From positions 6,287 through 70,286 of the IMG/VR virus record IMGVR_UViG_3300042286_000208: a stretch of DNA of 64,000 bases; one strand, written 5' to 3'. The stretch is from a virus (Duplodnaviria > Heunggongvirae > Uroviricota > Caudoviricetes). Below the pieces are notes generated by a model. The model was not told where the DNA came from. It searched no databases and was given only the letters and a program-made list of their open reading frames with translations. Below are positions 3,701 to 64,000 of the stretch, in pieces. The first letter of the stretch is position 1; the number at the start of each line of letters is the position of its first letter. A program made the translations under genes and the position numbers.

Positions 3701-5253
3701 TCTCCATTTATTTTTATTTTAAGAATATCGATCATATTTTGAAGTTTTGTTTTGATATCATTATTTACTTTATGTACAACATTAATATAATTAATTGGTC
3801 TGCTTTCAGATATTTGATTTATTTCATATGTATTAACAGCCTTATCTTTTTCTGCAGATATAGTCCCACTCAATGTTTTTATATCCATCAAAATAAAGAA
3901 TTTATACAGATAAATGTAGAGGTGACTTCTAATTACCTCTGACAAGCTATTTTTATAAGTTTCAAAACTGGTTGAATCATCAATAGCATCTGGTGAATCA
4001 CTTATGAAGAAATAGTTTGATACATCAACTTTAAAATCAACTAGTATATCTGGGTCTGTAATCGGATCTGTTCCGTTATATCATCTGAACATATCATTAA
4101 GAAAGCCTTCGAAAGTTGTTTCGTATGAGTCAGGAAAGTCACCTGCCACATAACTGTTTACTGAGTTTTTAAATATGATATGTAACTCATCAGTCTCAAT
4201 ACCTGTAAATTTAATTTGATCATTTACATGTTTTATAGCATCTCTAGCTAATTTTGATACATTGATATTTAGATTAGTAACGCTGTTGAAATAATTTACT
4301 GTGTTGTTTTGAGCATACTCAGTAAGATTTTTTAATATTATACCATTCAGTATGCCATTTGTTTTTATTTCCTCAAGTAAGTTTCTTAGATAACTTTTTT
4401 TAACAGAAAGAACTAGCTCTGTGTTCTCATCTATTTCTTCCTGATCATTTCCTGTTATCATACCCTTGTCGATTAATTTAGTCTTCGTCTCTTCCGATAT
4501 ATACATATTATCAATAAATCTATACATATCTCTTTCAAAGTTACTGATTATATTCGCAGAATATCCTTCAACGATATATTCTCTAGATTTATTATCCTCT
4601 GTCTCCACTAAATCAAGTTTTATTTTTGCTACGACTTGTCCATTATTTATCAGGTTATATTCTATAGGATTTGAACCATCATGTATAAGTAATTCAAAGT
4701 CCATGTTTAACACCATTGTGTTTCCGTTCAGACCTAGATTTAATATTTTACCATCCACGCTGAATTGATTACTCTTTAGTCTGAAAGATTTTACAAAATT
4801 TTCTCTATAGACATTATTAACATAAGGGATAGAAAAAGAATATGTTCTACTACTATCTTGATTTATGTTGTTAGGTGTATCAATAAGTGTTACAGTATAA
4901 GTAAACTTTTCTGATATATTAAAAATATTATATATAGCATTATCACCGATGTTAAAAACCATATATTTATTATATAGGATCATCATCTCAATAAGATCGA
5001 CAGTCGCTATAGGGTTAACAAACTGAGTGAAATATCTATAGGCATATTTATACATCATATTAGATAGATCGTTTTCTGTATAATCTTGTCTTTTTTTGAA
5101 TAAGATATTATGAGATATAAACTCAGTGAGGTTGTTTAAAGCAACCGCGTCAGAACCACTAACTTTGTAAGGCGATGTATAATTGCTCAGCGCCATTCTT
5201 ATTAAGTCTATTTTTTCATTTCTAGTTGCTTTTAAATTGTCAAAATTTGTCAT
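787..5253 (-). CDS. Large virion structural protein, probable baseplate wedge (~1488 aa, 10 TGA=Trp)
   Basis: Six track ORFs (850-5262) are in one frame and joined only by TGA; GAGGTG SD before ATG 5253; first TAA at 787-789; upstream of baseplate-type gene. Confidence 0.75.
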
Positions 5254-5274
5254 AATGCTCACCTCATTTATTTT

Positions 5275-5392
5275 TCTCTATAGTTATTAGTACTATATAT
5301 AGTTATTAGTATATATAGATATTATTAATTAATAAGTAATAAATATAATTATAACTATTATATAGATATTAATTAATAAATTAAATAATAAA
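5275..5392. repeat. Extremely AT-rich tract with short direct repeats
   Basis: TATAGTTATTAGTA x2 and TATATAGATATTA x2; almost no G/C. Confidence 0.7.
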
Positions 5393-5960
5393 AAACTTTA
5401 CCCTGTGCTGTTTCCAGGGTTATCCCTCTTTGAACAGTGAGTGACGGCAGCATTTATCCGGACATATCTGTATAGTGTTAAGTCTTCCACTAAAGCAGGA
5501 ACTCTCTTTGTAAACAATTCTGTAAACTAAAACTTTAAAACATCGTAAACCATTTTGTAAACTAAAGGTGAAGATTTTTTGATAGCACTTTTACATAAGA
5601 ACTAGATATAATCTAATCAGATCTGGTTTTGTGTCGAACCCGCTAGTGTTAGTAGCTTCATCCTCTCTCCGAATTCGAGGACTTCTTAGGAGATCTTGTA
5701 TCACAAACGTGATACACTTACTTTCAAGGATTCTCACCCTGATCTACTATATGACTTTAATCTTCTTCATATAGCTAGTTACTTCAAAGAGCAATAACTA
5801 TATGTATTCTTTCCACTGTGAATGATTACCAATTTCAGTGAGTTATATCGGGAACTCATTAACGGGATTTCTTCGAGAAATGTCCAAAGGCTAGTTAGGT
5901 TTGATATAGTTAGCACTTTTGATTTCAAAGTCACAAATAAATCATAGTTTGCTCGACTAT
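5393..5960 (-). ncRNA. Candidate large structured non-coding RNA (~565 nt)
   Basis: No ORF; many stems (GTATCAC/GTGATAC, ATTTCT/AGAAAT, TGAGTT/AACTCA, CTATATGA/TCATATAG); late motif at 5' end; ACCCTG/CAGGGT hairpin plus T run at 3' end. Confidence 0.5.
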
Positions 5961-5973
5961 AATTAATTATTCA
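5958..5973 (-). promoter_or_regulatory. Putative late promoter motif TGAATAATTAATTATA
   Basis: Exact copy of 16-mer found 17 times in intergenic positions. Confidence 0.75.
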
Positions 5974-6153
5974 AGGGGTTCAAAACAAAAAAATAAACTC
6001 AAGTATAAATCCATTTGATCAAAATAAATATATTATAAAAATAGTTTAAATTAAAACAAGGTTATTAAAAGCTTTGTTTTTTTCTTAACACCAGAGGTAA
6101 TTAATTACTAGTTGGAAAGATTTTTTCCAACTTTTTTTTTACTTAAAACCTAC

Positions 6154-6169
6154 TGAATAATTAATTATA
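6154..6169 (+). promoter_or_regulatory. Putative late promoter motif
   Basis: Exact 16-mer, heads the trigger-factor operon. Confidence 0.75.
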
Positions 6170-6176
6170 AAACATA

Positions 6177-6260
6177 AGTCATCATATTGAACGAAGAGTC
6201 TACTCAGTTTCCTCCTCCTTGATTGGGTGGATTCTTCGTTGAGTATGATGATTATAGACT
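6177..6260 (+). promoter_or_regulatory. Long leader hairpin with anti-SD loop TCCTCCTCCTT
   Basis: 20-bp stem 6190-6209/6221-6240 (with G-U pairs), loop 6210-6220, lower stem TCATCATA/TATGATGA. Confidence 0.7.
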
Positions 6261-6281
6261 AAAAAGGAGGATAAATATCAA

Positions 6282-6485
6282 ATGACTCAAATCAAAATTA
6301 TTAAAAACATCGATATTAATAAAATGGAAAACGATGTCAACTGATGATTGAAACAAAACGACTCAAAGATCAAAGTAAAGAGTGTCGAGGTTAGCTCAGT
6401 TAACAGTCAGCCACCTGCAGTAAAAGGGTTATTCATAACAACGATTACTTATGAAGAAGCATCTACGGTGATTTTACATGATTAG
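6282..6485 (+). CDS. Hypothetical protein (67 aa, 2 TGA=Trp)
   Basis: AAGGAGG SD, ATG 6282, tandem TGATGA in frame, TAG stop; missing from ORF track. Confidence 0.65.
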
Positions 6486-6497
6486 AAAAATTAAAAT

Positions 6498-7070
6498 ATG
6501 AAAGAAAAATTAGAAAGGGGTAATACCATGCCAAAAGAAAAAGAATTAGAAATGATTAGCAAAGAAACAAAACAAGCAATTGAGCTCTTTGAAAAAAGAG
6601 ATATATTAAACACACAAATGATTGAAGAGTTAGACAAACAATTAGTGTCGTCTAAATACGGTTCAGTAGGACATGTTAATAAAATCACAAGGCTATCTTC
6701 TCTAAGAAATTATAAGCTGAGACTTCAAGAAGTAATTGAGGCTTTCAAACAAATTGTCGACTATAAGTCTCTTGAAACAATTGAAGGTTACATTGTAAAA
6801 GTTCTTGAAGATTCAAAAACTAACTTAAAAACAAGCTCTACTTCTTTAGATTCTGTTGAAATATTCTCAAATGATTATATTAAATATGAAATCCTAGTTA
6901 AGACTTATAAAGAGTTAAGTGATCTATATAGCGAAGTTATTGAAGTCCTTAAAAAAATCAAAGAAACAGTAAGACCTGAGCAAGCACCTAAACAAGAACA
7001 AGAAGTACCACCAACACCCGAGCAAACCTCGGCAGTTGAACAAAAACAAACTAAAAAGGAGACAGCATAA
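6498..7070 (+). CDS. Coiled-coil hypothetical protein (start may be 6528)
   Basis: Helical E/K/L-rich ORF with Pro/Gln-rich tail; stop overlaps tig start. Confidence 0.75.
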   Translation: MKEKLERGNTMPKEKELEMISKETKQAIELFEKRDILNTQMIEELDKQLVSSKYGSVGHVNKITRLSSLRNYKLRLQEVIEAFKQIVDYKSLETIEGYIVKVLEDSKTNLKTSSTSLDSVEIFSNDYIKYEILVKTYKELSDLYSEVIEVLKKIKETVRPEQAPKQEQEVPPTPEQTSAVEQKQTKKETA

Positions 7071-8434
7071 TGAACGGAGAATTACAAGTTTATAAAAAAG
7101 ATGAATTTAATTACGTATATACAAAAACAGCAAGTCGTAAAGAATTCGCTAAAGAATTAGAAGAAATTTATAATAAACATTATAAAACAAATTATGAACA
7201 AGATGGTTTTAGAAAAGGAGAAGTACCTTTTAATCTAGCCATTCTTAATCCAAAGCTATCAGCTAGTATTTTAAAAACTGTAGCTTTAATAGATAGACAA
7301 ATTTTTGTTGAAGAAATTATTAAAGAGGTTTCAGATATTGGAAGTATCTATGATATTAAAGATGGTTCAGATCAAACTGACTTTGAAGGATTTGATCTAT
7401 CATTAGAAGATCCCGTCATTTTTCAATTAAATGTAGAATTGGCTTCGTTTGTTGATAATGTTAATTATGAAGATGCAAAAGTAGATAAAGAACTCATTAA
7501 ATCCAAACCATCAACAGAAAAAGAATTAGTTGCTCTATTTAAAGAATATAAGAAAGTAAAACAACAACAAAATAAAGCTACAAAAACATCTTATGTTGAT
7601 TTAACATTTGACGATGGCAGAGATAAAGAAAATTTAACATTCAATCTAGCTCAAAAATTTGGAGAAGATGATGAAGCTCTAAAAGTTCAAACTCATGCAG
7701 AAGTTACAGAATTAGTAATGGGTAAAAAAATCGGTGATGAATTCTCTTATGCGTTGACAGGTAAAGACGGCTCTAAACTAGATGTAAAAGCAACTATCAC
7801 TGACATTTATAGAATCAAAGAGTTAAAAGATGATGAATTTATTGAAATGTTAAAAGACCAAAGTAATGTTCCTGAAGAACAAAAAGAAGGTCTAGACATT
7901 GATAAAGTAAAGGTTATGTTTAAAGAACATCTTGAGAAGATATATCAAGATAACTACACTGAAGAAGTGCGTTCATTAACTTTTGCTGCACTCAACAATC
8001 TTACTGAAGGAATTCACTATAACGAAAACGAAATCACAAATCTGAAAAACCAGTTTACAGTCCAAGTACAAAAAATGGCAGATCAAGAAAAAACTTCATT
8101 TGCTGATTATGTAATTAAGAACTTTGGAAGTCAAAAACTGATGGAAGATTATGTAGATGCTAGTCAAAGAGCAAGAGTTCTTCAAGCAGCGATCTATAGA
8201 AAAATTGGAAAAGAAATGGGATTAGTTCCTACTTATATGCAATTAGAATCATTCGTTAAAACGTTCTTGTTCAAGTTTGATCCTACACAACTTATGGATG
8301 ATGCATTGGTACAACAAGTCAACCAACAAGTAACACAAGTACTAGCTGAACCACTTAACAGACAAAGAATTATTGAAAGTTGGGCTTCTGTTAAAGCAGA
8401 AGATATGATTAACGATCAAATCGGTTTACTTTAA
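7070..8434 (+). CDS. tig: Trigger factor (ribosome-associated chaperone)
   Basis: GFRKGEVP ribosome-binding signature near N-terminus, FKBP-like middle region, helical C-domain, 454 aa. Confidence 0.8.
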   Translation: MNGELQVYKKDEFNYVYTKTASRKEFAKELEEIYNKHYKTNYEQDGFRKGEVPFNLAILNPKLSASILKTVALIDRQIFVEEIIKEVSDIGSIYDIKDGSDQTDFEGFDLSLEDPVIFQLNVELASFVDNVNYEDAKVDKELIKSKPSTEKELVALFKEYKKVKQQQNKATKTSYVDLTFDDGRDKENLTFNLAQKFGEDDEALKVQTHAEVTELVMGKKIGDEFSYALTGKDGSKLDVKATITDIYRIKELKDDEFIEMLKDQSNVPEEQKEGLDIDKVKVMFKEHLEKIYQDNYTEEVRSLTFAALNNLTEGIHYNENEITNLKNQFTVQVQKMADQEKTSFADYVIKNFGSQKLMEDYVDASQRARVLQAAIYRKIGKEMGLVPTYMQLESFVKTFLFKFDPTQLMDDALVQQVNQQVTQVLAEPLNRQRIIESWASVKAEDMINDQIGLL

Positions 8435-9636: not shown

Positions 9637-9660
9637 AATATATCACCTTCCTTGCTTAAC

Positions 9661-9676
9661 TATAATTAATTATTCA
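9661..9676 (-). promoter_or_regulatory. Putative late promoter motif
   Basis: Exact 16-mer, divergent partner of 9729. Confidence 0.75.
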
Positions 9677-9728: not shown

Positions 9729-9744
9729 TGAATAATTAATTATA
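9729..9744 (+). promoter_or_regulatory. Putative late promoter motif
   Basis: Exact 16-mer just before GAGGTG SD. Confidence 0.75.
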
Positions 9745-9768
9745 TAAATAGAAATAGAGGTGGACGAT

Positions 9769-10833: not shown

Positions 10834-10883
10834 CAACTGGGCTGGTCGAACACACCCCGGTCTAGTAGACCCTGGTCCACCAA

Positions 10884-10911
10884 CGACGGGGAATTTCCCC
10901 GTCATTTTTTT
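10884..10911 (+). terminator. Intrinsic terminator
   Basis: GACGGGG-AATTT-CCCCGTC followed by T7. Confidence 0.85.
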
Positions 10912-10938: not shown

Positions 10939-12762
10939 ATGAAACTGGAAATACTAGATATAAATAAATTCATCAAAGAAAATGATGTGAAAGAAGTCAA
11001 TAACACTATTTTCTTCATAGGTAACCTCCCTCAACCAGGCGGATTATTTGATCCTGAAATATTTGGTTATTTTACCGAGGAAGAAAAATACAAATATGGA
11101 TATATTGATTTAAAAGATAACTATATTCACCCACTAGTTGTTATAAACCTAATGAGAATGGGTTCTCTTGGATCACTATTACTACAACATGATAGCATCA
11201 AAAAGAAATGAGCAAAAGTTGTAGACGGAAAGATAGTTTATGTCAAAAAGACAGAACCAGGAGCAGAAACGGGAAAAGAATTCTATTGAAACAACTTCGA
11301 TAAAATAGATTGGAATAAATCTCTAGGTTATGTCAGAGAAACAAAAGATGAGTACGAAGAAATAACAGATGAAGCAGCTACAGAAGATGTTGAAGAGCTA
11401 GAAAAATTCATAGATGAAGAAATGGATGATTTTTCAGTATCCAAAGCTGGTCGTATAAATTTTATAAAATCTTTAACAAAACAAGAGTTCTTTGTTAATA
11501 AATGGTTGGTCATTCCTAAAGGATATAGAAATATTTCTAGCGAAAGTAGAACATTGGGCTCAGATATAAACAAAGAGTACAGAAAACTATTAACAAATAT
11601 AAATGCTTTATCTAGATTCTCATCAAGTTCTATTTTTGGACTTACTCAAATCCAAGAATACTTAATTCAAAATGTTATTTTGGTAAACTTATTTAAAGAT
11701 ACGATCGGTTTTATAACAGGAAAAAGAGTAGATTTTGATAAATCAACAAACAAACCAGCCCCAACAACAGGTGTTGCCAAGAACTCTAATTTCCAAAATA
11801 AAATTATCGGCAAATCAATTGATTATAGCTCAAGAAATGTAATCATTGCTCCAACTATGGCAACGAAGAATACTTACAAAGAGGTTGATGCACTTGCTGG
11901 TTATTCGGGAATACCTCTTGCATCAATATGTTCATCATTCCTACCTTTCGTTTTAAAACATTCCTATGATATAATCAGGGATCTCGAAATGAACATCGAG
12001 AGACAAATGTTAAAATGAGATGAGACTTTTATTAGAGTAGAACCTTCTTCTAAATTATTTATAGAAAAGCTATTGAAGAGCTTTATTAAATCAGATAAAG
12101 GAAGGATGGATGGATACAATTTTATTCTTATATTTGAAGATGAGAACAAGAGACAGATAAGAAAAGATCACAAAATGGTAGTAAATGTCGCACACAGTAG
12201 AGAAGAATTTAAAAATAAAACTTATAAAAGAAGACATTTCACTGTAACAGATTTATTTTATCAAGCAGCAGCCAAATCTATTGTTGATAGACATGTGCTT
12301 CTGGTTAGATACCCTGTATTAAACCACTTAAATATATTCCCAACAGGTATTAATCTTCTTTCAACAAAAAAAGAAGACAAAGGAGTTTATTTATTATATA
12401 ATTTTAACGTAAACTGATTAGATTCAAACTTCCCTAACGAAGCAATGTTTTATTTCGATAAATATCCACTTATACCAAACTTTAAAGGCGATAGCATGGA
12501 AGTTTTTGAACCAACAACCGAGAACAACACATTTATAGATGCGTTGATACCTGGAAATAGTTCTCTAAAGAGCCTTAATGGTGACTATGATGGTGATACA
12601 TTATCAGTAATCGGGTTATTTTCAGAAGAAGCTAATAAAGAAGCGAGAGAATATATTAATAGTGCTGGTTATTTTGTTACCAGTACAAATAAAAATATTA
12701 GGTCAATTGACTCTATCGGTAAAGAATATGTTATGGGATTATATATGTTGACGAAGGATTAG
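10939..12762 (+). CDS. Phage multisubunit RNA polymerase beta-prime N-terminal subunit (607 aa, 4 TGA=Trp)
   Basis: Four track ORFs joined by TGA at 11209, 11287, 12016, 12415; catalytic LNGDYDGD (NADFDGD-type), GLFDPEIFG, GKSIDYSSRNVI, RYPV motifs. Confidence 0.9.
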
Positions 12763-13333: not shown

Positions 13334-13374
13334 ATATGAAAATGTAGTGAAATATATTTGAGGAGGAAAAGCAA

Positions 13375-14563: not shown

Positions 14564-14579
14564 TAATTAAAAAAAGGAG

Positions 14580-16429: not shown

Positions 16430-17122
16430 ATGGAAAGAAAAAAATTTGAAGAAACTCAAAAACTAATATCTAGATACGTTATGGTTATAGCCGATGTCAA
16501 AAACTCAAAGGTTATTTTAAAAACACGAGATGGCAGAAAAGCTTTCCAACATTTATTAAATGACACAAGAGAAATATTAGAAAAACCTGAAGTTATTCAA
16601 TTTGAAGATTCTGGTGTTAAATTTAGATTAATAAGAAAAGGTGACTGTATAGGATTTGTTTTTGATAAAAACACAGACTATGACAACATATCTTCTATAC
16701 TAAACGAATGGGACGATTTACTTAAAAAGAGCGGACTAAAATTCCATAGAAATCAATGTGCCATACCTTCTTTAGATAACTATATGGAGCACTTCATTTA
16801 TCTAGAGAAAGATTCTAAGGAAGCAGATATTGAAAACACAGATACTACAAAAAACAAAACAATCAATATATCATTAGAAGTAGATGTAGAGGATTTCATT
16901 GAAGAAGACTACGTTAGAACGGAGATTGAGCATGCTATAAACAGTTATGATTGGCATGTGAATTCTATCAGTGTCAAGACTAATAAACAAAATATAACAA
17001 AAGAAGAAGTACATGAAGCAAGAGAAATTTTGTTTAAATTTGCAACAATAAGCGAGAAGCTTGATTTAATAGAAGGTCGTAAACTAAATAAAAAATTAGG
17101 TAAATTTATTGACGATAAATAA
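16430..17122 (+). CDS. Hypothetical protein with SatD/class III cyclase-like N-terminus
   Basis: VMVIADVKNS ... RKGDCI two-Asp spacing; weak. Confidence 0.35.
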   Translation: MERKKFEETQKLISRYVMVIADVKNSKVILKTRDGRKAFQHLLNDTREILEKPEVIQFEDSGVKFRLIRKGDCIGFVFDKNTDYDNISSILNEWDDLLKKSGLKFHRNQCAIPSLDNYMEHFIYLEKDSKEADIENTDTTKNKTINISLEVDVEDFIEEDYVRTEIEHAINSYDWHVNSISVKTNKQNITKEEVHEAREILFKFATISEKLDLIEGRKLNKKLGKFIDDK

Positions 17123-17133
17123 GGAGATCAATA

Positions 17134-18331: not shown

Positions 18332-19078
18332 ATGGACGTATTAGAAAAAATAATCAAACAAAAAAAATATCTAGAAAATTTAGGTTATAATGTTTTATAT
18401 ATGGGTCTATTTGGATCCCAAAACTATGGACTAGATAGTGAAGATAGCGATATTGATCTACGTGCCATTGTATTACCCACATTGGAACAGTTGATCAAAA
18501 AAGAAAGAATTAGCAAACAAATCGAGAATGATCTTGGTTTGATAGATGTTAAAGACATAATTGATTTCTATGAAGTGATAAATAAAGGAAATTTTGCTTA
18601 TATAGAGTCGATACAAACAAAATGGTTTATCGGAGATGAGTATATTAGGAATTTATTTGGTAAAATCAAAGTAAACCTGAGAAGTCTAAAAGGAGATATG
18701 TACACAAAAGCTAGAGTATTTAGATCTCCTTATTCTACGAAAGAGATGAAAAACGGATATGAATCCAAAGAACTTTATCATCTTTTTAGAATGCTATATC
18801 TGATCCAAAGTAGAGATGATAGTATATCATTTATTAATTATAGTGAAGACAAAAAAACAAAACAATATCTTTTAGACATTAAAAATAATAAAGATATGAT
18901 TATAGATTCTCTGGATTTTATTGATATTTCTTCGTTTGAAACAATAAAACCATGGATAGAGGAACAGACAGAAGAGTATATTCCAAGAGAATATAAATAT
19001 GAGCCTGAAGATATAATGGAAGAAGTTGTGGAATATACCAAACAAAAAATAATAAATTTATATATATTATCATCATAA
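18332..19078 (+). CDS. Pol beta-family nucleotidyltransferase
   Basis: GSQNYGLDSEDSDIDLR (GS...DxD) motif. Confidence 0.8.
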   Translation: MDVLEKIIKQKKYLENLGYNVLYMGLFGSQNYGLDSEDSDIDLRAIVLPTLEQLIKKERISKQIENDLGLIDVKDIIDFYEVINKGNFAYIESIQTKWFIGDEYIRNLFGKIKVNLRSLKGDMYTKARVFRSPYSTKEMKNGYESKELYHLFRMLYLIQSRDDSISFINYSEDKKTKQYLLDIKNNKDMIIDSLDFIDISSFETIKPWIEEQTEEYIPREYKYEPEDIMEEVVEYTKQKIINLYILSS

Positions 19079-19088
19079 GGAGAAAATT

Positions 19089-19668: not shown

Positions 19669-19869
19669 ATGGCTAGAAGATTTGTAATATTAAGTACAGG
19701 TAATGGTAATTTGCTCATCCCTGAAACAAAATATAATAAAAAAGAAGAATTACAAATACATCATGTAATTGGCTATGGAACAAAGAGACGCCTTAGAAAA
19801 GAAGGCTGGGACTTAAGAAAAAAAAACAAAGGAGAAATAAGATGGACGCAGAAAAATATATTGTTGTAA
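19669..19869 (+). CDS. Hypothetical basic protein
   Basis: GAGGAG SD, 66 aa. Confidence 0.6.
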   Translation: MARRFVILSTGNGNLLIPETKYNKKEELQIHHVIGYGTKRRLRKEGWDLRKKNKGEIRWTQKNILL

Positions 19870-21747: not shown

Positions 21748-21823
21748 TGAGAGAATGGTTTTGGATCATTGTGCATTTAGTTGCATTGCTATTATTAATT
21801 GGATTAAGGAGAGAGAATAAATT

Positions 21824-22380: not shown

Positions 22381-22710
22381 ATGAAACTAAAAGTTGATAT
22401 CAATGTAGGAGGAAAACCTAAGCATATTGTAGAGATAGTTAAAAATGTTAACATGAGAGAGAACATTCTATCGATCAGAAAAAGAGGAAAAGAAAAAACC
22501 TATGTTTTGATTGAAATTGAAGTCGATGGATGTGAGCCGGAGACAAACTATGCTTTCATATGTGACGATGATGACTTCATCTATGCTTGTTCTGAGAAAA
22601 AACTAGCTGGAGCAATAGTCGAATTAAACTGGCTACATGAAGATGAGTATAGAGTCATAAATAAGAAAAACACAACTCTAACAATTAAGGAGAATACAGA
22701 TGGCGAATAA
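22381..22710 (+). CDS. Hypothetical protein
   Basis: 109-aa ORF in tight operon. Confidence 0.7.
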   Translation: MKLKVDINVGGKPKHIVEIVKNVNMRENILSIRKRGKEKTYVLIEIEVDGCEPETNYAFICDDDDFIYACSEKKLAGAIVELNWLHEDEYRVINKKNTTLTIKENTDGE

Positions 22711-24038: not shown

Positions 24039-24105
24039 TGGAACATATTATTTTGACATAATATGTTTATTATAAATCTAAAAATAAAAACACGGAGGTT
24101 TTGAG

Positions 24106-26669: not shown

Positions 26670-26690
26670 GGCGAACAACCATTAATGGCT
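26670..26690 (+). CDS. nrdJ: nrdJ micro-exon 2 (21 nt, GEQPLMA)
   Basis: Restores TNPC-GEQPL-MANGS-CNLGS catalytic loop with canonical spacing. Confidence 0.9.
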
Positions 26691-26951
26691 TAACCAAACA
26701 CTTAAAAAGTGTAGGCCCTTCATGTAGTAATATATGAAGAAAACCCTTTGAATTGCTGGAAAATCTTACCAAGTAATGTTGAAGACAATCAGCAGCCAAG
26801 CCTCAATAAGAGGAAGGTTCAACGACTATCTCGAAAGAGAGTAGGGTCAAGTGACTCGAAGCGGAGGGAATCCTATTAAGGATTATGATATAGTCTGTTC
26901 TATATGGAAACATATAGAGATAAGAATAACGAACTTATCGCAACAATAAAG
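26691..26951 (+). mobile_element. Group I intron 2 in nrdJ (261 nt, no ORF)
   Basis: P1 GGCT/GGCC with U.G; GAATTGCTGGAAA, AATCAGCAGCCAAG, GTTCAACGACTA and GATATAGTC; terminal G. Confidence 0.9.
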
Positions 26952-30725: not shown

Positions 30726-30741
30726 CGAATAATTAATTATA
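30726..30741 (+). promoter_or_regulatory. Putative late/middle promoter motif (CGAATAATTAATTATA variant)
   Basis: 15/16 match; heads recA operon. Confidence 0.7.
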
Positions 30742-30771
30742 ACATAAGAAAGGCATCGAAAGGTGAATAAC

Positions 30772-32646: not shown

Positions 32647-32665
32647 TTATGAATAACATAGTGAG

Positions 32666-33118
32666 GTGAGTGTAATGATGGAAAACCCTGTAAGCATATT
32701 AGATAAATTTATATTATACATCTTGGAGCTTTTAGATACACCGTTGATGTATTTAAAACCAATTGATATCCTTTTAATGGCTGCTTTTATGGTAGGAACA
32801 TATTATTTTGTTAAAGTTTTACTTAAAGCATTCATGAGATATGGATATAGTGGAGTTAAAATAGTCTATAGACCTTTTATCGTTTTATATGGGAAAAATA
32901 AACATCACAGAGAAAATAAAAGAACCTGTCATGTTTGTAAAAACTCTCTTCACAAATGTACATGTCCAAGCAACAGAGGAGTCTCTTATAAAGAAAGATT
33001 AGCTAAGTGGAAAAAAGTAGAGAGTGCAAATAAATTAGCTAGAAAACAAGCAGAACTTAAGAAAAAAGAGCAAAGCAGACCAGTAGAACTAAAAAGAAAG
33101 AAAAATGGAGGTAGATAA
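32666..33118 (+). CDS. Membrane protein with small Cys cluster
   Basis: One TM, CHVC...CTC, basic tail. Confidence 0.7.
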   Translation: MSVMMENPVSILDKFILYILELLDTPLMYLKPIDILLMAAFMVGTYYFVKVLLKAFMRYGYSGVKIVYRPFIVLYGKNKHHRENKRTCHVCKNSLHKCTCPSNRGVSYKERLAKWKKVESANKLARKQAELKKKEQSRPVELKRKKNGGR

Positions 33119-35865: not shown

Positions 35866-35881
35866 TGAATAATTAATTATA
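35866..35881 (+). promoter_or_regulatory. Putative late promoter motif
   Basis: Exact 16-mer. Confidence 0.75.
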
Positions 35882-35912
35882 AAAGAATAAGTAAAAAAAC
35901 GGAGGTGTGGAC

Positions 35913-38389: not shown

Positions 38390-38408
38390 TATAAACACCT
38401 CCCGCATA

Positions 38409-38424
38409 TATAATTAATTATTCA
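38409..38424 (-). promoter_or_regulatory. Putative late promoter motif
   Basis: Exact 16-mer. Confidence 0.75.
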
Positions 38425-38842: not shown

Positions 38843-38871
38843 ATGCTTCCTCCTTGTATATCATTATATTT

Positions 38872-41785: not shown

Positions 41786-41898
41786 AATATATTCACCTCT
41801 CGTAAATTTGAATTTTTTCATAAATTAGGTGACCCCTTTTGCTAAATGAAAATTTGTGGGTAGTCGGTTATTCATTTAGTTCCGGTAAATCGCCCATT

Positions 41899-41914
41899 TA
41901 TAATTAATTATTCA
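41899..41914 (-). promoter_or_regulatory. Putative late promoter motif (capsid operon)
   Basis: Exact 16-mer. Confidence 0.8.
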
Positions 41915-42124: not shown

Positions 42125-42140
42125 TGAATAATTAATTATA
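42125..42140 (+). promoter_or_regulatory. Putative late promoter motif
   Basis: Exact 16-mer. Confidence 0.75.
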
Positions 42141-42151
42141 AATATAGGTAG

Positions 42152-42829
42152 GTGATGAACATGGATGAGAAAAAAATGATAGAAAATGTTGAACAAGATA
42201 TATTTTCTGCAGATGAAAGACCAGAGGACGATCCAATGGATATTATTAGAAATGGAATATCTTTCGGTGAAACAGTGGAGTCTGTTCAAAGAGTTGAGAA
42301 CAAATCTATGGAAAAAGAAAACCCACCAAAACAGAATCCCACAGTTCCGACACATAAACCAATTAAGATCGGGGAAGATGTACAGAGAGATATTAACCAA
42401 GAAGATACATCGGTAGTTCAAAAAATGGCAGATAGTTTTAAAGAAGCTAACTCAAATCTAGTCAAAAAGAAAATTGAAAATATTCAGATAGGTCATCTCG
42501 TAACGGCGATATACGGGGATTTTAGCAATCAAAAAGTCATAAATGGTAAAGTTGTTAGTGTTATAGACAAAGGTATTACCATACTGTCTATTGATAAAGA
42601 GATGGTTGATCCTGTTGTTGTTCCGTTTGATACAATAATAGATATTTTTGAAGTAAAAAAATTCAAAAAGAAAAAGAATGATATTTCTATGTTTAAGATC
42701 AACAAAGCCATTAGAGAATTCTTTAGTGGAAACGAAGAAGAGCTCAAACATGCTTACGAACAAAAGATTTCTGTCAAGAAGTTAAGACAAGAACTCAAAA
42801 GAAAAGAGAATGAAAAAAATAAAGATTAG
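42152..42829 (+). CDS. Hypothetical protein
   Basis: 225-aa ORF under late motif. Confidence 0.75.
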   Translation: MMNMDEKKMIENVEQDIFSADERPEDDPMDIIRNGISFGETVESVQRVENKSMEKENPPKQNPTVPTHKPIKIGEDVQRDINQEDTSVVQKMADSFKEANSNLVKKKIENIQIGHLVTAIYGDFSNQKVINGKVVSVIDKGITILSIDKEMVDPVVVPFDTIIDIFEVKKFKKKKNDISMFKINKAIREFFSGNEEELKHAYEQKISVKKLRQELKRKENEKNKD

Positions 42830-42862: not shown

Positions 42863-42901
42863 TACTGATGATATAAGAATATTTTAAAAGAGGAGAAAAA
42901 T

Positions 42902-43198
42902 ATGAAAAGATTATTTTTAGTATTATTACTTTTAGTTTTGGTTTTTTCAATATCAGGATGTGAAGACAATCCACATATGATACCAGAAGACGAAAGAAGA
43001 TTTGAGATCGTATATGATACGTTTGATTTAAGCAATTCCGGAAGCTATGCTTTATACACAACAATTTTTGTTGATAAAGAAACTGGTATTGCTTATATTT
43101 TTGTCAGAGGGGATTCTCCTTCTGGTAGCAGTGGTCTAACTGTTATGTTGGATGAAGATGGAAATCCATTAATTTGGGACACCCATAAAGGTAGATAA
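42902..43198 (+). CDS. Small lipoprotein
   Basis: MKR + hydrophobic core + ISGC lipobox; FVDKETGIAY...GLTVMLDEDGNP. Confidence 0.75.
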   Translation: MKRLFLVLLLLVLVFSISGCEDNPHMIPEDERRFEIVYDTFDLSNSGSYALYTTIFVDKETGIAYIFVRGDSPSGSSGLTVMLDEDGNPLIWDTHKGR

Positions 43199-43212
43199 AG
43201 GAGAAATTTATC

Positions 43213-44789: not shown

Positions 44790-44805
44790 TGAATAATTAA
44801 TTATA
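44790..44805 (+). promoter_or_regulatory. Putative late promoter motif
   Basis: Exact 16-mer 4 nt before GGAGGTGA. Confidence 0.75.
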
Positions 44806-44813
44806 AACCGGAG

Positions 44814-45098
44814 GTGATCACCATGTCTTTAATGAAGAAAAAGTATACCAATAGCAGTGGAACTATATCTAAAACTTTTAAAATAGGTAAAAATAGATTA
44901 ACTATAGACAATGAAGTCGATGGTTCACTAAGGTTTTCTCTGTATGACTCCCAAGGGGTTTTGACTGAATGGAAATTAAATAGCGATGATAAGTCCATAG
45001 AATTTCCAACAGGAGATAAGATTATAGCTTCACAATTACTAGAAAGACTCGATCTTATTGAGCAGAGATTGACAGCTATTGAAAATATTGAAGAATAA
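44814..45098 (+). CDS. Small late protein (possible tail-fibre/chaperone-type)
   Basis: C-terminal coiled coil LERLDLIEQRLTAIE. Confidence 0.65.
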   Translation: MITMSLMKKKYTNSSGTISKTFKIGKNRLTIDNEVDGSLRFSLYDSQGVLTEWKLNSDDKSIEFPTGDKIIASQLLERLDLIEQRLTAIENIEE

Positions 45099-45205: not shown

Positions 45206-45221
45206 TGAATAATTAATTATA
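45206..45221 (+). promoter_or_regulatory. Putative late promoter motif
   Basis: Exact 16-mer. Confidence 0.75.
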
Positions 45222-45261
45222 GAATGTTGATTCTTAAAAAGAAGGAAAGAGGTGACCTATT

Positions 45262-52389: not shown

Positions 52390-52404
52390 TCTCCTATTTT
52401 TGCA

Positions 52405-52510
52405 GTAATAAGAGATAGCAATTGAGCTATCTCTTATACTAGGAGGATCATGGAAAGGAGTAACCATGACAGCAAATGTTGATATAGTAGGAAAGGAGTA
52501 AACCTACTAT
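52405..52510 (-). ncRNA. Candidate small RNA with anti-SD loops
   Basis: Hairpins ATAGTAGG-TTTACTCCTTT-CCTACTAT and TCATGG-TTACTCCTTT-CCATGA, linker TCCTCCT, 12-bp terminal hairpin; late motif at 5' end and no minus-strand gene. Confidence 0.6.
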
Positions 52511-52523
52511 AATTAATTATTCA
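52508..52523 (-). promoter_or_regulatory. Putative late promoter motif, antisense to local genes
   Basis: Exact 16-mer on minus strand. Confidence 0.75.
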
Positions 52524-52554: not shown

Positions 52555-53493
52555 GTGGGTAAAAAGATTCCAATCACCCCAAATTTTAATATACTAATTG
52601 ATTCACAAAACTTACTGAGATTAGACGATGAATTAAAAAAAATAAACACATATGTCGAGGAAAAACCTTTGGGTGATAGAATGAAAGAATACGAATCACT
52701 TACTCGATTTAAACTATCCAAAGAATATCCGATGATCATACGTCTTGACGGTAACGCATTCCATACCTTTACAAGAGGATTTGAGAAACCATTTGATAAA
52801 ATACTGAGAGAAGCAATGGAAGAAACAGCAAAGTTTCTATTAGAAAACATCCCAGGATCTCAATGTGCTTATCATCAATCAGATGAAATATCAATATTAG
52901 TAACAAACTATCAACTTAGCAATAGAGAACCTTGGTTTGATAACAATATTAATAAAATTGTTTCCATAACTTCATCCATGGCAACTTTAGCCTTCAATAG
53001 ATCTTTTCTAAAGAAGATTAAGGAAAGAATCGGTATTGTTGATTACAACGAAGCAAGAATATATGCCGAAGACAGTTTTGTAGCAAAAATGGATGCGATC
53101 GAGAATGGAGCTCTATTTGACTCAAGAGTGTTTATTTTACCAAAAGACGAAGTGGTTAATTACTTCATTTGGAGACAACAGGACGCGATCAAAAATTCAA
53201 TCTCTATGGTGGCTCAATCACTATTTAGTCACAAATCACTTCAGGGCTTAAATGGTCCACAAATGATTAAAAGAATGAAAGATGAAAAAGGTATCGACTA
53301 TGATAAAAAATATACCGTCATCGAAAGAAGAGGCAGTATTACTCATAGATTAAAACCGATGGAACAGACCAAAGTTATAAGAATGAAAAACGGTATAGAA
53401 AAAGAAATAAGATTTACAAGATCTAATTGGGGTATAGATGATAATATTCCAGTGTTTAAGGACGAAAGAGACTATATCGAAAAATTTATTTAA
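52555..53493 (+). CDS. thg1: tRNA(His) guanylyltransferase / Thg1-like 3'-5' polymerase
   Basis: RLDGNAFHTFT, QSDEIS, FDSRV, YFIWRQQDAIKNSISM. Confidence 0.92.
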   Translation: MGKKIPITPNFNILIDSQNLLRLDDELKKINTYVEEKPLGDRMKEYESLTRFKLSKEYPMIIRLDGNAFHTFTRGFEKPFDKILREAMEETAKFLLENIPGSQCAYHQSDEISILVTNYQLSNREPWFDNNINKIVSITSSMATLAFNRSFLKKIKERIGIVDYNEARIYAEDSFVAKMDAIENGALFDSRVFILPKDEVVNYFIWRQQDAIKNSISMVAQSLFSHKSLQGLNGPQMIKRMKDEKGIDYDKKYTVIERRGSITHRLKPMEQTKVIRMKNGIEKEIRFTRSNWGIDDNIPVFKDERDYIEKFI

Positions 53494-53741: not shown

Positions 53742-53757
53742 TGAATAATTAATTATA
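53742..53757 (+). promoter_or_regulatory. Putative late promoter motif
   Basis: Exact 16-mer. Confidence 0.75.
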
Positions 53758-53784
53758 AACTATTAAGTAAAATAGGTGATTACT

Positions 53785-56909: not shown

Positions 56910-56925
56910 TGAATAATTAATTATA
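56910..56925 (+). promoter_or_regulatory. Putative late promoter motif
   Basis: Exact 16-mer. Confidence 0.75.
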
Positions 56926-56945
56926 ATTGAAATGAGGTGACTACT

Positions 56946-58574: not shown

Positions 58575-58590
58575 TGAATAATTAATTATA
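58575..58590 (+). promoter_or_regulatory. Putative late promoter motif
   Basis: Exact 16-mer. Confidence 0.75.
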
Positions 58591-58623
58591 AAATAAAAAG
58601 AATAAAACAGGTAGGTGGTTAAT

Positions 58624-60591: not shown

Positions 60592-60592
60592 C

Positions 60593-61762: not shown

Positions 61763-61772
61763 GGAGATAATT

Positions 61773-62252
61773 ATGAGCAAAAAAAGAATATTTATTGACA
61801 TGGACGGAGTCTTAGCTGACTGGTATAAAGGAGTCCAAGATCTACCAAAGGACATATATGATGAATATGCTTATAGACATGACGAAGTTCCTGGCTTATA
61901 TCTCAATTTGCCGATTATAGAGGGATCAGTAGAAGCTGTTCTAGAATTAAATAAACATTTTGATTTATTTATATTATCCACAGCATCGTGGGGAAGCTCT
62001 AGTAGTTTAACGGAAAAAGTGGAATGGATCAAGAAACTATACGGTAGTGAACAAGATTCCCCTTTTTATAAAAAGGTTATATTAACACACAGAAAGGACC
62101 TTCTTATCGGAGACTACTTGATTGATGATAGAGAGGTCAATGGAGCTAAAGAGTTCACAGGAGAATTGATACAATTTGGTACTTCTGGGTTCGAAACTTG
62201 GGCGGATGTTGTAAAATATATTTTATCTAAAGAAGGAATTGAGTCATCGTAA
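61773..62252 (+). CDS. 5'(3')-deoxyribonucleotidase (HAD, NT5C-like)
   Basis: IFIDMDGVLAD; HRKDLLIGDYLIDDR. Confidence 0.9.
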   Translation: MSKKRIFIDMDGVLADWYKGVQDLPKDIYDEYAYRHDEVPGLYLNLPIIEGSVEAVLELNKHFDLFILSTASWGSSSSLTEKVEWIKKLYGSEQDSPFYKKVILTHRKDLLIGDYLIDDREVNGAKEFTGELIQFGTSGFETWADVVKYILSKEGIESS

Positions 62253-62272
62253 ACATTTCATAATAAGAATAT

Positions 62273-62284
62273 TATATATTATTA
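62273..62284 (+). promoter_or_regulatory. Putative early promoter motif
   Basis: TATATATTATTA. Confidence 0.5.
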
Positions 62285-62305
62285 AATGAGAAGGTGGTGC
62301 TAAGT

Positions 62306-62785
62306 ATGAAAATAGCAGTTATAGGAACAAGAAGTTTGAGAAATCAAAAAGATGTACTTACTAATATTGTAGAGTATCTCAAAGAAAATGGACTAAATGT
62401 CCATGTGGTTCGATCTGGTAATGCTTTGGGCACGGATCAGGTGTCGAATAGTTTTGCAAAAATCGATAGAATAAATGTTATTCATTATCTACCATGGGAA
62501 AGTTACAATAAGGATTTACAAATAAAAAAAGATAATGTATACTATATATGCAAGTCGACACATAAGTTTGACAAGGACATACTTGACATGTTTCCTCATA
62601 TGAATAATATGAAACCTGGAATATGGTCTCTTATTAGAAGAAACTTTCAGATCATATTGGGCACTGAAGGAAATGATCCTGTTGATATTGTATTTTGGCA
62701 TACGATAGATGGAAAATTAACAGGAGGCACCCGATATGGTGTCATGCTTGCAAGAAAATTAGGAATAAAAGATATAAGTGTATAA
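62306..62785 (+). CDS. SLOG-superfamily (DprA/YspA-like) nucleotide-binding protein
   Basis: KIAVIGTRS, RSGNALGTD, RRNFQIILG, GGTRY. Confidence 0.7.
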   Translation: MKIAVIGTRSLRNQKDVLTNIVEYLKENGLNVHVVRSGNALGTDQVSNSFAKIDRINVIHYLPWESYNKDLQIKKDNVYYICKSTHKFDKDILDMFPHMNNMKPGIWSLIRRNFQIILGTEGNDPVDIVFWHTIDGKLTGGTRYGVMLARKLGIKDISV

Positions 62786-62808
62786 ACTAGTTAAAAGGAG
62801 ATGAGTAG

Positions 62809-64000
62809 ATGGAAAAATTAACTATAGATAATAACGAATTAATATTTAATAGACTTAAAAATGAAATAGTAAAAGACATATCTTCTAGAAAAGAATTGAT
62901 AACTTTCAATTTTAACGGAGAGGATATCACATTACAGAAAATATTTTGGATATATAATACTTTGCTCCTAACCATGGTAAAGGATTTTGAGAAGGTAAAC
63001 ACAAGGGATTTGATCACTGACACTTTCAATAGCAAGATATTTGAAAAATTTGTAAATAAGTTTCTTGATGTAGACAACAAACATCAAGTCGCAAAAATAT
63101 TGACTGAGTTTTCAAAATTATCGGTAATCGGTAATAATAAACTAGACACAGGTCTTTCTCTGAAGAATATTATTGATGGGTATCTTAAATATGAAGATTT
63201 TAGGAATATTATTGACAATATAGATTCAGATGGTAATCCTATATTAAATGGTGATGAAGATATATATGAAGTTGAACGCAAGTTCGCAGAAGGTATCGTC
63301 AATATGAGAAAAGTTTTGTCAAACAAACCGGATTTATGGTTCTACGACTTCGTTAAAAATGGAGAAGGATTAAACTTTAAGCAGTTATTTCAAACAATAG
63401 GGTTTGTTGGATCAAAACCTGTTGTTAACTTTGATTTTAGAAATAACGGAGTTAACTCTGATTTTATAAAAAGCAACTTTATAAGAGGGACTGAGACAGA
63501 ACAAGAATATTATATCAACTGTATGTCTGCAAGAAAAGCACAAACTGTTAACCGCATGTTAATTCAGCCTTCAGGTTATTTTATGAGACGTTTATCGCTA
63601 TTAACAATTGATACAACACATAATAATAAAGAAGAGGATTGTGGTACAGATAAGGGAGTTATAGTTCATGTCAACTCGAGTAAAGAGTTATCCATGATTG
63701 ATGGTAGACACTACATAACTGAAAAAGGAATCGAAACAATTGATGCTGAAAAAGACATACATCTCATCGGTGAAACTTTAACAGTTAGGTCACCTATAAC
63801 ATGTAAACATTCTCATACGACTGGTGTTTGTAGAACATGCTTTGGTAAAGATCTGGCTAGTAAATTACAAGATTTCAATAGTGGTATGTTGGCTGTGTTA
63901 AACTTTACAGAACAACTAACACAGAATATGTTAAATGCTAAACACTTCAGTTCTACAAGTGCTGAAAAAGTTGACTTTAGTAAAGAGTTCTATAGCATAT
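62809..64000 (+). CDS. Phage multisubunit RNA polymerase beta-prime middle subunit (partial, runs off right edge)
   Basis: SGYFMRRL bridge helix, EEDCGT, RSPITC...C..CFG Zn site, EQLTQNMLNAKH trigger-loop-like; no TGA in ~397 codons; missing from track. Confidence 0.88.
   Translation, partial: MEKLTIDNNELIFNRLKNEIVKDISSRKELITFNFNGEDITLQKIFWIYNTLLLTMVKDFEKVNTRDLITDTFNSKIFEKFVNKFLDVDNKHQVAKILTEFSKLSVIGNNKLDTGLSLKNIIDGYLKYEDFRNIIDNIDSDGNPILNGDEDIYEVERKFAEGIVNMRKVLSNKPDLWFYDFVKNGEGLNFKQLFQTIGFVGSKPVVNFDFRNNGVNSDFIKSNFIRGTETEQEYYINCMSARKAQTVNRMLIQPSGYFMRRLSLLTIDTTHNNKEEDCGTDKGVIVHVNSSKELSMIDGRHYITEKGIETIDAEKDIHLIGETLTVRSPITCKHSHTTGVCRTCFGKDLASKLQDFNSGMLAVLNFTEQLTQNMLNAKHFSSTSAEKVDFSKEFYSI

Follow-up and report, generated by a model that had tools for sequence, protein, structure and literature searches.

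Do the early and late genes of this phage address the ribosome through different parts of the Shine-Dalgarno (SD) sequence, and could such a difference act as a translation-level switch? The original prediction, made by eye on the 64,000 nucleotides analysed here (the window), held that early-cluster genes mostly use AAGGAG, that genes directly behind the late motif mostly use (G)AGGTGA, and that the loops of an anti-SD small RNA distinguish the two. We find two SD dialects in one giant phage, divided by promoter class and strongest on the first cistron. In the 16S anti-SD, CUCCUUU forms the outer, 3'-terminal part and AUCACC the inner part. The AAGGAG or AAAGGAG of early genes and most internal cistrons is predicted to pair with the former, the AGGTGA(T) or GAGGTGA of the first cistrons of late transcripts with the latter, and the aligned spacing is the same. 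No description of a register split between temporal classes was found in the literature searched.

Genes behind the motif TGAATAATTAATTATA were assigned to the late class and those behind TATATATTAT to the early class. The early motif shares its core with the experimentally mapped AR9 early consensus, AAATATATATTAT-6N-G (PMC5312081). Genes with in-frame TGA make up 69/164 of those in late units versus 10/105 in early units, so that the register split accompanies TGA recoding, as had been proposed; a search of 258 kb (both contigs) found no UCA suppressor tRNA. The class labels are sound, given the AR9-like early core and the concentration of TGA codons in late units: early genes form the virion RNA polymerase class, and late transcripts the non-virion polymerase class. 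Each SD was matched exactly to AGAAAGGAGGTGATC at positions -21 to -4 of the start, and the 3' end of the best match decided its type: R (reaching GGTG), M (ending GGAGG(T)) or L (ending GGAG or earlier). The full count covers 274 genes on two contigs, the 134-kb contig holding the window and a 124-kb contig (G001) that probably supplies the remaining half of this phage's genome.

The late-side sites in the window are as follows.

5259..5265, minus strand: GAGGTGA SD of start 5253, a 1488-aa gene with 10 in-frame TGA
6263..6270, plus strand: exception, AAAGGAGG SD of start 6282, late motif at 6154, long (112-nt) structured leader
9642..9648, minus strand: AGGTGAT SD of start 9636, 24 nt behind late motif 9661-9676
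9757..9762, plus strand: GAGGTG SD of start 9769, behind late motif 9729-9744
24094..24099, plus strand: exception, GGAGGT SD of start 24106, 67 nt behind late motif at 24023
30761..30766, plus strand: AGGTGA SD of start 30772, behind one-mismatch late motif 30726-30741
32663..32669, plus strand: GAGGTGA SD of start 32675, behind late motif 32631-32646
35901..35907, plus strand: GGAGGTG SD of start 35913, head-tail joining gene with 6 TGA, late motif 35866-35881
38396..38402, minus strand: GGAGGTG SD of start 38389, behind late motif 38409-38424
41793..41799, minus strand: GAGGTGA SD of start 41785, 113 nt behind late motif 41899-41914
42150..42156, plus strand: AGGTGAT SD of start 42161, behind late motif 42125-42140
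44810..44819, plus strand: GGAGGTGATC SD of start 44823, behind late motif 44790-44805
45249..45255, plus strand: GAGGTGA SD of start 45262, behind late motif 45206-45221
53774..53780, plus strand: AGGTGAT SD of start 53785, gene with 5 TGA, behind late motif 53742-53757
56934..56940, plus strand: GAGGTGA SD of start 56946, gene with 3 TGA, behind late motif 56910-56925
58613..58617, plus strand: AGGTG(G) SD of start 58624, behind late motif 58575-58590

The early-side sites are as follows.

13361..13366, plus strand: AGGAGG SD of start 13375, first gene behind early motif ~13322
14573..14579, plus strand: AAAGGAG SD of start 14589, internal early-cluster gene
17121..17126, plus strand: AAGGAG SD of start 17134, internal early-cluster gene
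19077..19082, plus strand: AAGGAG SD of start 19089, behind early motif ~19061
19828..19834, plus strand: AAAGGAG SD of start 19842, internal early-cluster gene
21806..21811, plus strand: AAGGAG SD of start 21824, internal early-cluster gene
22687..22692, plus strand: AAGGAG SD of start 22700, internal early-cluster gene
38849..38855, minus strand: AAGGAGG SD of start 38842, behind early motif ~38873
42891..42895, plus strand: (AG)AGGAG SD of start 42902, behind early motif ~42851
43197..43203, plus strand: AAAGGAG SD of start 43213, early-unit gene
62292..62296, plus strand: exception, AAGGTGGTG SD of start 62306, behind early motif ~62273

The sites named originally are all borne out, with small corrections. 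AAGGAG or AAAGGAG stands before the early-cluster starts 14589, 17134, 19089, 19842, 21824, 22700 and 43213, and (G)AGGTGA or GGAGGTGATC before 5253, 9636, 32675, 40655, 41785, 44823, 45262, 53785 and 56946; the exceptions are likewise as described, with AGGTG at 23291, GAGGTG at 44416 and GGAGG at 785. Most of the late sites lie directly behind the late motif as stated, but 5253 and 40655 do not; the former is the first protein gene after a late motif at 5958, from which non-coding sequence separates it. The SDs assigned to starts 32666 and 44814 are present, but these positions are in-frame GTG codons that lie within the SD; the true starts are the ATG codons 9 nt downstream (32675 and 44823). 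The start once given as 14580 is that at 14589. The relatives' gene calls confirm start 41785, and the GAGGTGA of start 32675 is identical in three relatives despite a differing leader.

Counted per promoter class, SD register shows a significant association where none would have spoken against the idea, and one stronger than first claimed. Among first genes of both contigs, R-type SDs are found in 38/50 late versus 2/25 early cases (OR 36, p=1.3e-8), and L-type SDs in 16/25 early versus 7/50 late cases (p=2.8e-5). The bias extends to all genes (73/164 in late units versus 11/105 in early units; p=1.4e-9) and to internal genes (35/114 late versus 9/80 early; p=0.0016). Within the window alone, the corresponding R counts are 13/16 versus 1/6 for first genes (p=0.011) and 22/52 versus 3/32 for all genes (p=0.0013). 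These counts are slightly conservative, because a tie rule scores start 30772 as L although it reads AGGTGA by eye. Since the two contigs are probably one genome and the relatives are orthologous, the counts are not evolutionarily independent replicates.

We assign only a negligible chance to the split being random or an artefact of start choice, and reject this explanation on the k-mer test, the spacing and the full count. The start score does include full anti-SD pairing and could favor long, G-C rich matches. However, a k-mer test that uses no start calls agrees: the 60 nt behind the late motif contain GGTG in 17/23 and 22/28 cases, the 75 nt behind the early motif in 3/24 and 0/14, against a background rate of 0.12 per 60 nt. 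Aligned spacing is tight (a value of 8 in 49/86 R sites), the relatives' independent gene calls match the chosen starts, and p-values reach 1e-8 to 1e-9. The late register is also a true shift rather than a mere extension of the SD, as GGAG is absent from 29/38 late first-gene R sites and present in nine.

Five fragmentary relatives show the split as well. Where the homologue of the 570-aa protein (38943-40655) is 67-85% identical, relatives have retained the late motif and the GGTG sites, with 30 sites dividing into 23 R, 5 M and 2 L. In AR9, whose promoters are experimentally mapped, the split is nearly absent: R sites precede 10/71 late versus 0/30 early genes, a weak GGTG trend. Short leaders alone do not explain the split, because the late leaders of AR9 are just as short, at 17-35 nt, and yet only those 10/71 are R. 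SD strength alone does not explain it either: in the bin from -13 to -10.5 kcal/mol, the R share is 76% for late first genes but 24% when every other gene is taken together and 10% for early-unit genes.

The register signal lies mainly on the first cistron, with R shares of 76% at rank 1 of late operons, followed by 38%, 42% and 17%. Internal late genes include 41/114 L-type (36%) and 35/114 M-type cases, and some carry in-frame TGA. Those far from an upstream stop are not enriched for R (27% vs 32%), and therefore rescue by translational coupling is not evident.

The candidate effector named originally is encoded within the window.

52508..52523, minus strand: perfect late motif driving the small RNA
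52398..52507, minus strand: predicted small RNA, ~105 nt, fold z-score -6.7, five homologues

Its homologues and fold z-score mark the anti-SD small RNA as a real, conserved gene, as anticipated. The predicted fold comprises two 5-7 bp hairpins with CUCCUUU in their loops; UCCUCCU lies unpaired in the linker, and the RNA ends in a hairpin of ~15 bp and then UUAUUA. Across the five homologues (84% column identity), CUCCUUU in both loops and AUCCUCCUA (UCCUCCU) in the linker are invariant while adjacent loop bases vary. The alignment contains one compensatory pair, and G-U pairs are possible only on the minus strand. All five homologues, from relatives, stand behind a late motif, with another gene between the small RNA and thg1 in 2/5; no Rfam family matches. 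The small-RNA motif reproduces the eight bases that precede the final U in the Bacillota 16S tail assumed here. With this tail, which may differ in the host, AAAGGAG is bound about equally by the loops and the 16S tail (-7.6 vs -7.5 kcal/mol) and AGGUGA poorly by the loops (-2.4 vs -7.4 kcal/mol), in agreement with the pairing originally proposed. Compared with the small-RNA motifs, the 16S tail has a median advantage of -6.1 kcal/mol at late first genes and of -0.8 at early first genes (p=4e-7). In absolute terms, loop-SD energies are similar in the two classes (p=0.1), and early genes are not over-represented among the top predicted loop targets.

We tentatively favor, at clearly less than even chances, the view that the purpose of the split is to let de novo initiation on the first cistrons of late mRNAs escape the late-made small RNA. 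By displaying CUCCUUU twice in loops and UCCUCCU once in the linker, this RNA might rival the ribosome for AAGGAG and GGAGG sites and not for GGUGA sites. It would block the first cistron of early, and probably also host, messages and so silence those operons, leaving late operons open at the first cistron; internal late cistrons might be read by ribosomes already on the message, or be partly damped. The nine late first-gene R sites with GGAG could pair with the linker. Thus the register split and the pairing on which the proposed decoy was built hold up and the model is plausible, but its global form conflicts with the internal late genes: many are L-type (36%), and therefore a decoy silencing every AAGGAG-led message would hit them too. 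The phage's late bS21 may act at the same interface, and either effector could exploit the split as a translation-level early-to-late switch.

It is possible, if rather doubtful, that there is no switch, and that late first cistrons, whose leaders are very short, simply need de novo initiation that is strong and accurate. A start-codon-proximal AGGNGAT SD would then be the best site in an AT-rich Bacillota setting and the cheapest gain of G-C pairs, while early enzymes, needing less output, would keep the default GGAG in an A-rich context. Late first-gene SDs do bind the (assumed) 16S tail more tightly (mean -13.4 vs -10.4 kcal/mol), among late first genes the leader is shorter where the SD is of R type (p=0.006), and the R share declines with operon rank. 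Yet R remains enriched in equal-strength bins, most late first-gene R sites give up the GGAG core rather than extending it and so sacrifice binding energy, and the late genes of AR9, whose leaders are as short and whose output is high, rely on GGAGG(T) or AAGGAG. This explanation also leaves unaccounted for a conserved late RNA bearing exactly the complementary anti-SD half. A RegB-like nuclease that cuts the GGAG SDs of early messages, with late sites avoiding GGAG, is highly improbable. Early SDs do resemble the T4 RegB consensus GGAGRAYARAA (PMC3014915) in joining GGAG to an A-rich stretch, and the loss of GGAG from most late first-gene R sites would fit, but neither contig contains a family match even at E<=1, and GGAG persists in the nine R sites and in many internal late sites.

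A re-tuned ribosome is unlikely. The phage bS21, absent from the original prediction, fits about as well as the small RNA as effector. A 76-aa bS21 variant made from a late operon would enter the host 30S beside the SD-anti-SD helix, alter which portion of the anti-SD can be used, and favor GGUGA sites on late messages. The homologue matches profile PF01165 (E=1.2e-9, above the curated cut-off); its best structural relatives are Bacillota bS21 proteins, and it is longer at both ends. Its gene is second behind a late motif at window coordinate 108478, a terminator-like hairpin and T run lie ahead of this motif, and the operon partners of bS21 carry TGA. It is kept at 74-86% identity in 11 related clusters with the same gene context, and the first gene of its operon has an AAGGAG-type SD in both genomes seen, which fits a factor needed before the switch. 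AR9 lacks both bS21 and the GGTG bias. Phage bS21 has been proposed to select late phage transcripts (PMC9723584), and bS21 has been placed where start-codon-proximal pairing would be affected (PMC13009471). However, the latter work suggests that a long-tailed bS21 hinders rather than helps such pairing, the co-occurrence amounts to one clade versus one outgroup, internal late genes are mostly not R, and entry of the phage protein into ribosomes is an assumption.

Bacillota small RNAs such as RsaE/RoxS and RNAIII pair C/U-rich loops with the SDs of many mRNAs. The RNA described here resembles them in being short, with its own promoter and terminator and pyrimidine-rich loops complementary to ribosome-binding sites, but is phage-encoded and driven by the phage late polymerase. 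In T4, too, temporal classes differ in their SDs and an effector keyed to GGAG, RegB, removes early messages while late messages are immune (PMC3014915); here there is no RegB homologue, the candidates are a small RNA and a ribosomal protein instead of a nuclease, and the difference lies in which half of the anti-SD is paired. The phages of Chen et al. 2022 (PMC9723584) share a bS21 gene in a late operon and a distinct late initiation signal, but infect Bacteroidota, whose ribosomes ignore the SD; the present bS21 is of Bacillota type, the host presumably uses SDs throughout, and the register is shifted rather than the SD being present or absent. With AR9/PBS1 (PMC5312081), this phage shares the early promoter core, short leaders, split polymerase subunits and a late promoter ending in TA then A or G, although AR9 is without bS21 and recoding and shows only the weak GGTG trend. 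TGA genes behind late promoters recall gut phages with stop-codon recoding of late genes (bioRxiv 10.1101/2021.08.26.457843). Finally, AGGNGAT pairing to the AUCACC part of the anti-SD, near the start codon and in an AT-rich Bacillota setting, is also found in Staphylococcus aureus (PMC13009471), where it is a species-wide habit, whereas here it separates temporal classes within one genome.

The register of Shine-Dalgarno (SD) pairing separates early from late leaders in this phage, and the split is solid. The original prediction held that genes of the early clusters mostly use AAGGAG and genes directly behind the late motif mostly GAGGTGA; its listed sites and three exceptions are all as described, and a full count gives a significant association between SD register and promoter class, both over two contigs and in the window alone.

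The window covers bases 6287-70286 of G000, a single virus contig of 134,286 bp and 30% G+C, whose k-mer spectrum is dominated by two words, TGAATAATTAATTATA (late) and TATATATTAT (early). The late motif is present in 22 exact copies plus one copy with a single mismatch; the base after it is always A, G or T, and a gene usually follows within 17-40 nt. Of the early core, G000 has 24 copies; most lie between genes and face a gene, and the seventh base downstream is often G. This is the same core as in the early (virion polymerase) consensus of phage AR9, mapped by experiment as AAATATATATTAT-6N-G, whereas the late motif lacks the AACA of AR9 late promoters (AACA-6N-TA/G, with TA then A or G at the start site) and has only the terminal TA(A/G) in common with them (PMC5312081). 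Judged by its sequence, the late motif is a variant and not the AR9 late element. On the strength of the shared early core and the TA(A/G) ending of AR9 late promoters, we took the two words as "early" and "late". Gene functions speak for this (ThyX, RNA ligase and Thg1 behind early motifs, a head-tail joining protein behind one late motif), and so does TGA content: 69/164 genes in late units contain 190 in-frame TGA codons, compared with 12 in 10/105 genes of early units. Such a concentration in late genes is also seen in stop-codon-recoded phages. A suppressor tRNA with anticodon UCA was not found by ARAGORN in G000 or in the second contig, G001; the tRNAs that it reports number one in G000 (tRNA-Met) and 27 in G001, including Trp(CCA). 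The G001 tRNA bank (85145-104239, minus strand) includes tRNAs for nearly every amino acid.

Split beta/beta' RNA polymerase subunit genes are common to this phage and AR9/PBS1-like jumbo phages. The split beta' subunit encoded at 10939-12759 (607 aa under code 4) is 27-30% identical, with E down to 2e-52, to the beta' subunits of AR9, PBS1, Staphylococcus jumbo phages and Listeria phage LPJP1. The gap just upstream of this gene contains an Rfam DUF3800-XI RNA match (54.9 bits, 10838-10900, plus strand). A single-protein search with the polymerase subunit found no related loci. G001 (IMG/VR contig 3300042286_000220, 124,311 bp, loci L113-L119) was reached through the late motif; otherwise, a scan of IMG/VR for the exact motif gave mostly chance matches in AT-rich contigs. 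Apart from its last 127 nt, which match the reverse complement of G000's end exactly, G001 shows no nucleotide similarity to G000. Each contig is rated about 47-48% complete. For these reasons G001 was rejected as an independent replicate. The two are probably halves of one ~258-kb jumbo phage genome, so that G001 doubles the sample and does not represent an independent lineage.

Genes were called under code 4. Many frames that look broken become continuous once TGA is taken for an amino acid; one such frame, at 787-5262, spans 1491 aa and includes 10 TGA. Two gene pieces flank a group I intron at 26682-26917 on the plus strand (Rfam RF00028, 101 bits). Starts were chosen by coding potential and by pairing to the full tail GAUCACCUCCUUUCU, a register-blind scoring; this tail is of the Bacillota 16S type and may not be the host's. 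For every SD we located the best exact match to AGAAAGGAGGTGATC within -21 to -4 and classed the site by where that match ends on its 3' side: R sites reach GGTG, M sites end at GGAGG(T), and L sites end at GGAG or earlier. The centre of pairing computed with duplexfold had been tried as a measure of register and was dropped in favor of exact-match classes, as bulges and A-rich pairing blurred it. At 41785 we adopted the originally predicted start over the script's call, and the gene calls of relatives agree. Seven GGTGA-type sites with a 5-nt gap (32666, 44814, 5262, 9760, 53776, 56937 and 58615) contain an in-frame GTG that precedes the true ATG by 9 nt. As a result, programs that take the longest ORF place the start of such late genes three codons too far upstream, a practical point for users of ORF finders.

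Genes with R sites, as a fraction of the genes counted in late and early units
First genes behind a motif, both contigs: late 38/50, early 2/25 (odds ratio 36, p=1.3e-8)
Internal genes, both contigs: late 35/114, early 9/80 (p=0.0016)
All genes, both contigs: late 73/164, early 11/105 (p=1.4e-9)
First genes behind a motif, window only: late 13/16, early 1/6 (p=0.011)
All genes, window only: late 22/52, early 3/32 (p=0.0013)

Conversely, L-type sites make up 64% of early first genes versus 14% of late ones. The same contrast appears when start calls are not needed: 17/23 and 22/28 late motifs are followed by GGTG within 60 nt, versus 3/24 and 0/14 early motifs within 75 nt, against a background of 0.12 per 60 nt. 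Aligned spacing of R sites is tight (8 in 49/86), as expected of true SDs. Since GGAG is absent from 29/38 R sites of late first genes, the register is shifted and not only extended. The R excess is kept in matched strength bins, with 76% for late first genes versus 24% for all other genes and 10% for early-unit genes.

Within late operons, R sites fall from 76% at the first position to 38% at the second, 42% at the third and fourth, and 17% at the fifth or beyond, and they are not commoner in internal late genes with long upstream gaps. Thus, the GGTGA register is a property of the first cistron of late transcripts, and late genes overall are only moderately enriched. The lack of any gain at long gaps also leaves translational coupling unsupported as a rescue of internal late genes with AAGGAG. 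SD-to-ATG spacing is fixed in late leaders, whereas the motif-to-SD distance varies from 6 to 29 nt; with intervening sequences that by eye are unrelated, we rejected duplication of a promoter-leader cassette. Late first genes without R sites have longer leaders (p=0.006). In the few with AAGGAG-type sites, the leader is long and forms strong hairpins; one such leader is at 6154-6282 (plus strand) and a second in G000 beyond the window, at window coordinate 80740-80822. One hairpin loop reads UCCUCCUCCUU, and another stem is formed by GCTTCCACC/GGTGGAAGC. These structured leaders may represent separate cis control. The late unit behind the motif at 6154 includes a 454-aa protein (7070-8434, plus strand) with the N-terminal domain of trigger factor (E=2e-6), a ribosome-associated chaperone.

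To follow the register in relatives, we took contigs from several unrelated samples that carry a 67-85% identical homologue of the 570-aa protein at 38943-40655. They have an identical late motif, and their 30 late first genes comprise 23 R, 5 M and 2 L sites, versus 1/6 R in early ones. Orthologous leaders have kept the SD while the flanks drifted. An NCBI scaffold of 1.26 Mb bearing a homologue has runs of N and mixed gene content. In AR9 (KU878088.1), with classes taken from published transcription start tables, the bias exists in a weak form: GGTG sites precede 10/71 late-start genes versus 0/30 early ones (p=0.03). Most AR9 late genes have GGAGG(T) or AAGGAG behind leaders that are equally short, which argues against short leaders as the cause. 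By this comparison, the strong GGTG bias is a derived trait of the present TGA-recoding clade, and a consequence neither of short leaders nor of a two-polymerase program as such.

The first candidate effector is a small RNA of ~105 nt on the minus strand (52398-52507), whose loops resemble the anti-SD. Its promoter word is as follows.

52508-52523, minus strand: late motif of the small RNA, a perfect copy

The small RNA has a fold much more stable than those of shuffled sequences (z-score -6.7). Four homologues (L149, L153, L154 and L155), each directly behind a late motif, came from scanning metagenomes and from look-ups guided by Thg1. Two of the four have a further gene separating the RNA from thg1, which argues against a mere antisense by-product; with several pairs that switch between G-U and A-U, possible on the minus strand only, this weakens a role as cis-antisense of the thg1 leader. 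CUCCUUU is invariant in 10/10 loops while adjacent loop bases vary, AUCCUCCUA is invariant in the linker, and the terminal stem has one compensatory change. Identity to L149 is 82% over the RNA region, versus about 70% for the neighboring thg1 gene. Rfam gives no match at gathering thresholds at this locus, and a scan of IMG/VR for the two-loop pattern returned only two unrelated coding repeats. Thg1 homologues of the clade are mostly 284-297 aa, covering 94% of the 312-aa frame at 52555-53493 (plus strand), and thg1 probably begins 15-20 codons or so further downstream than the GTG at 52555. Another contig, L152 (JGI Ga0265293_10000123, 180.8 kb, labelled a Bacilli MAG at NCBI), encodes a Thg1 of 62% identity in phage-like surroundings of another kind, has neither the late motif nor the small RNA, and may be usable as an outgroup.

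Computed energies bear out the predicted pairing preference of the loops. AAAGGAG pairs with the loops at -7.6 kcal/mol and with the Bacillota-type 16S tail, which may differ from that of the host, at -7.5 kcal/mol; AGGUGA barely pairs with the loops (-2.4 versus -7.4 kcal/mol for 16S). The computed median margin of 16S over the small RNA is -6.1 kcal/mol for late first genes and -0.8 kcal/mol for early first genes, and among internal genes it is -2.0 (late) and -0.8 (early) kcal/mol. In this model, the margins fit a competitor that late first cistrons could outbid and early leaders could not.

Screening G000 and G001 for translation factors revealed a second candidate effector.

115735-115965 of the G000 genome (L150:1736-1966): phage bS21 homologue, 76 aa (PF01165, 35.4 bits, cut-off 27 bits)

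This gene would be at 109449-109679 if window coordinates were extended, and so lies beyond the window. The protein aligns to Bacillota bS21 chains and is longer at both ends. Its gene is the second of an operon behind a late motif (window coordinate 108478), itself preceded by a terminator-like hairpin with a T run; neighboring genes carry TGA, and the operon partners are a Metallophos nuclease and DnaB helicase. The protein is kept in 11 related protein clusters at 74-86% identity with the same neighbors. AR9 has no bS21, and tblastn of the phage protein in the GenBank phage collection found no match. Phage bS21 has been proposed to favor late phage transcripts (PMC9723584), and published work puts bS21 next to the SD helix, at its start-codon-proximal end (PMC13009471).

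How the split might act can be read in several ways. The original prediction was a decoy that shuts off early and host messages. This mechanism is coherent and is now backed by a conserved RNA; nonetheless, a global form of the switch clashes with the many internal late genes led by AAGGAG. A narrower version, in which the decoy spares the "gatekeeper" first cistrons of late operons, is one that we hold tentatively from the sequence. That no switch exists, and that the sites are simply optimized for high-output first cistrons, seems only slightly less likely than this; against it, the R excess persists in matched strength bins. Retuning of ribosomes by phage bS21 we consider unlikely. In both genomes seen, the bS21 operon opens with a gene that has retained an AAGGAG-type SD. 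What probability remains falls to a nuclease or something unseen. A RegB-like nuclease was rejected, as PF10715 matches nothing in either G000 or G001 even at E<=1, each contig being a fragment about 47-48% complete.

The decoy and bS21 readings are compatible and not exclusive. Combined, they would amount to a private late translation channel with partly orthogonal ribosome-mRNA pairing, an idea that we regard as rather unlikely. The late polymerase would make an RNA sponge copying only the outer half of the anti-SD, and might also make a bS21 variant. Together these would lower initiation on host and early messages led by AAGGAG and GGAGG, while the gatekeeper cistrons of late operons, moved to the inner anti-SD half (GGUGA), would remain translatable. 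If true, this would be a natural, partly orthogonal ribosome-mRNA pair acting together with TGA recoding.

Explanations of temporal control in phages usually invoke transcription. Clear class-specific translation signals are, to our knowledge, rare in phages, T4 RegB being the textbook case. Here one genome joins a conserved early/late difference in anti-SD pairing, a late small RNA with only the "early" half, and a phage bS21. Its GGTGA leaders provide a concrete cis-element for the idea that phage bS21 biases ribosomes toward late messages, and the same element bears on the idea that phages shut off host and early translation by small RNAs. In its architecture, the candidate RNA resembles trans-acting RNAs of the RsaE/RoxS type, being a small RNA with its own promoter and terminator and a stable fold in whose loops the motif is exposed.
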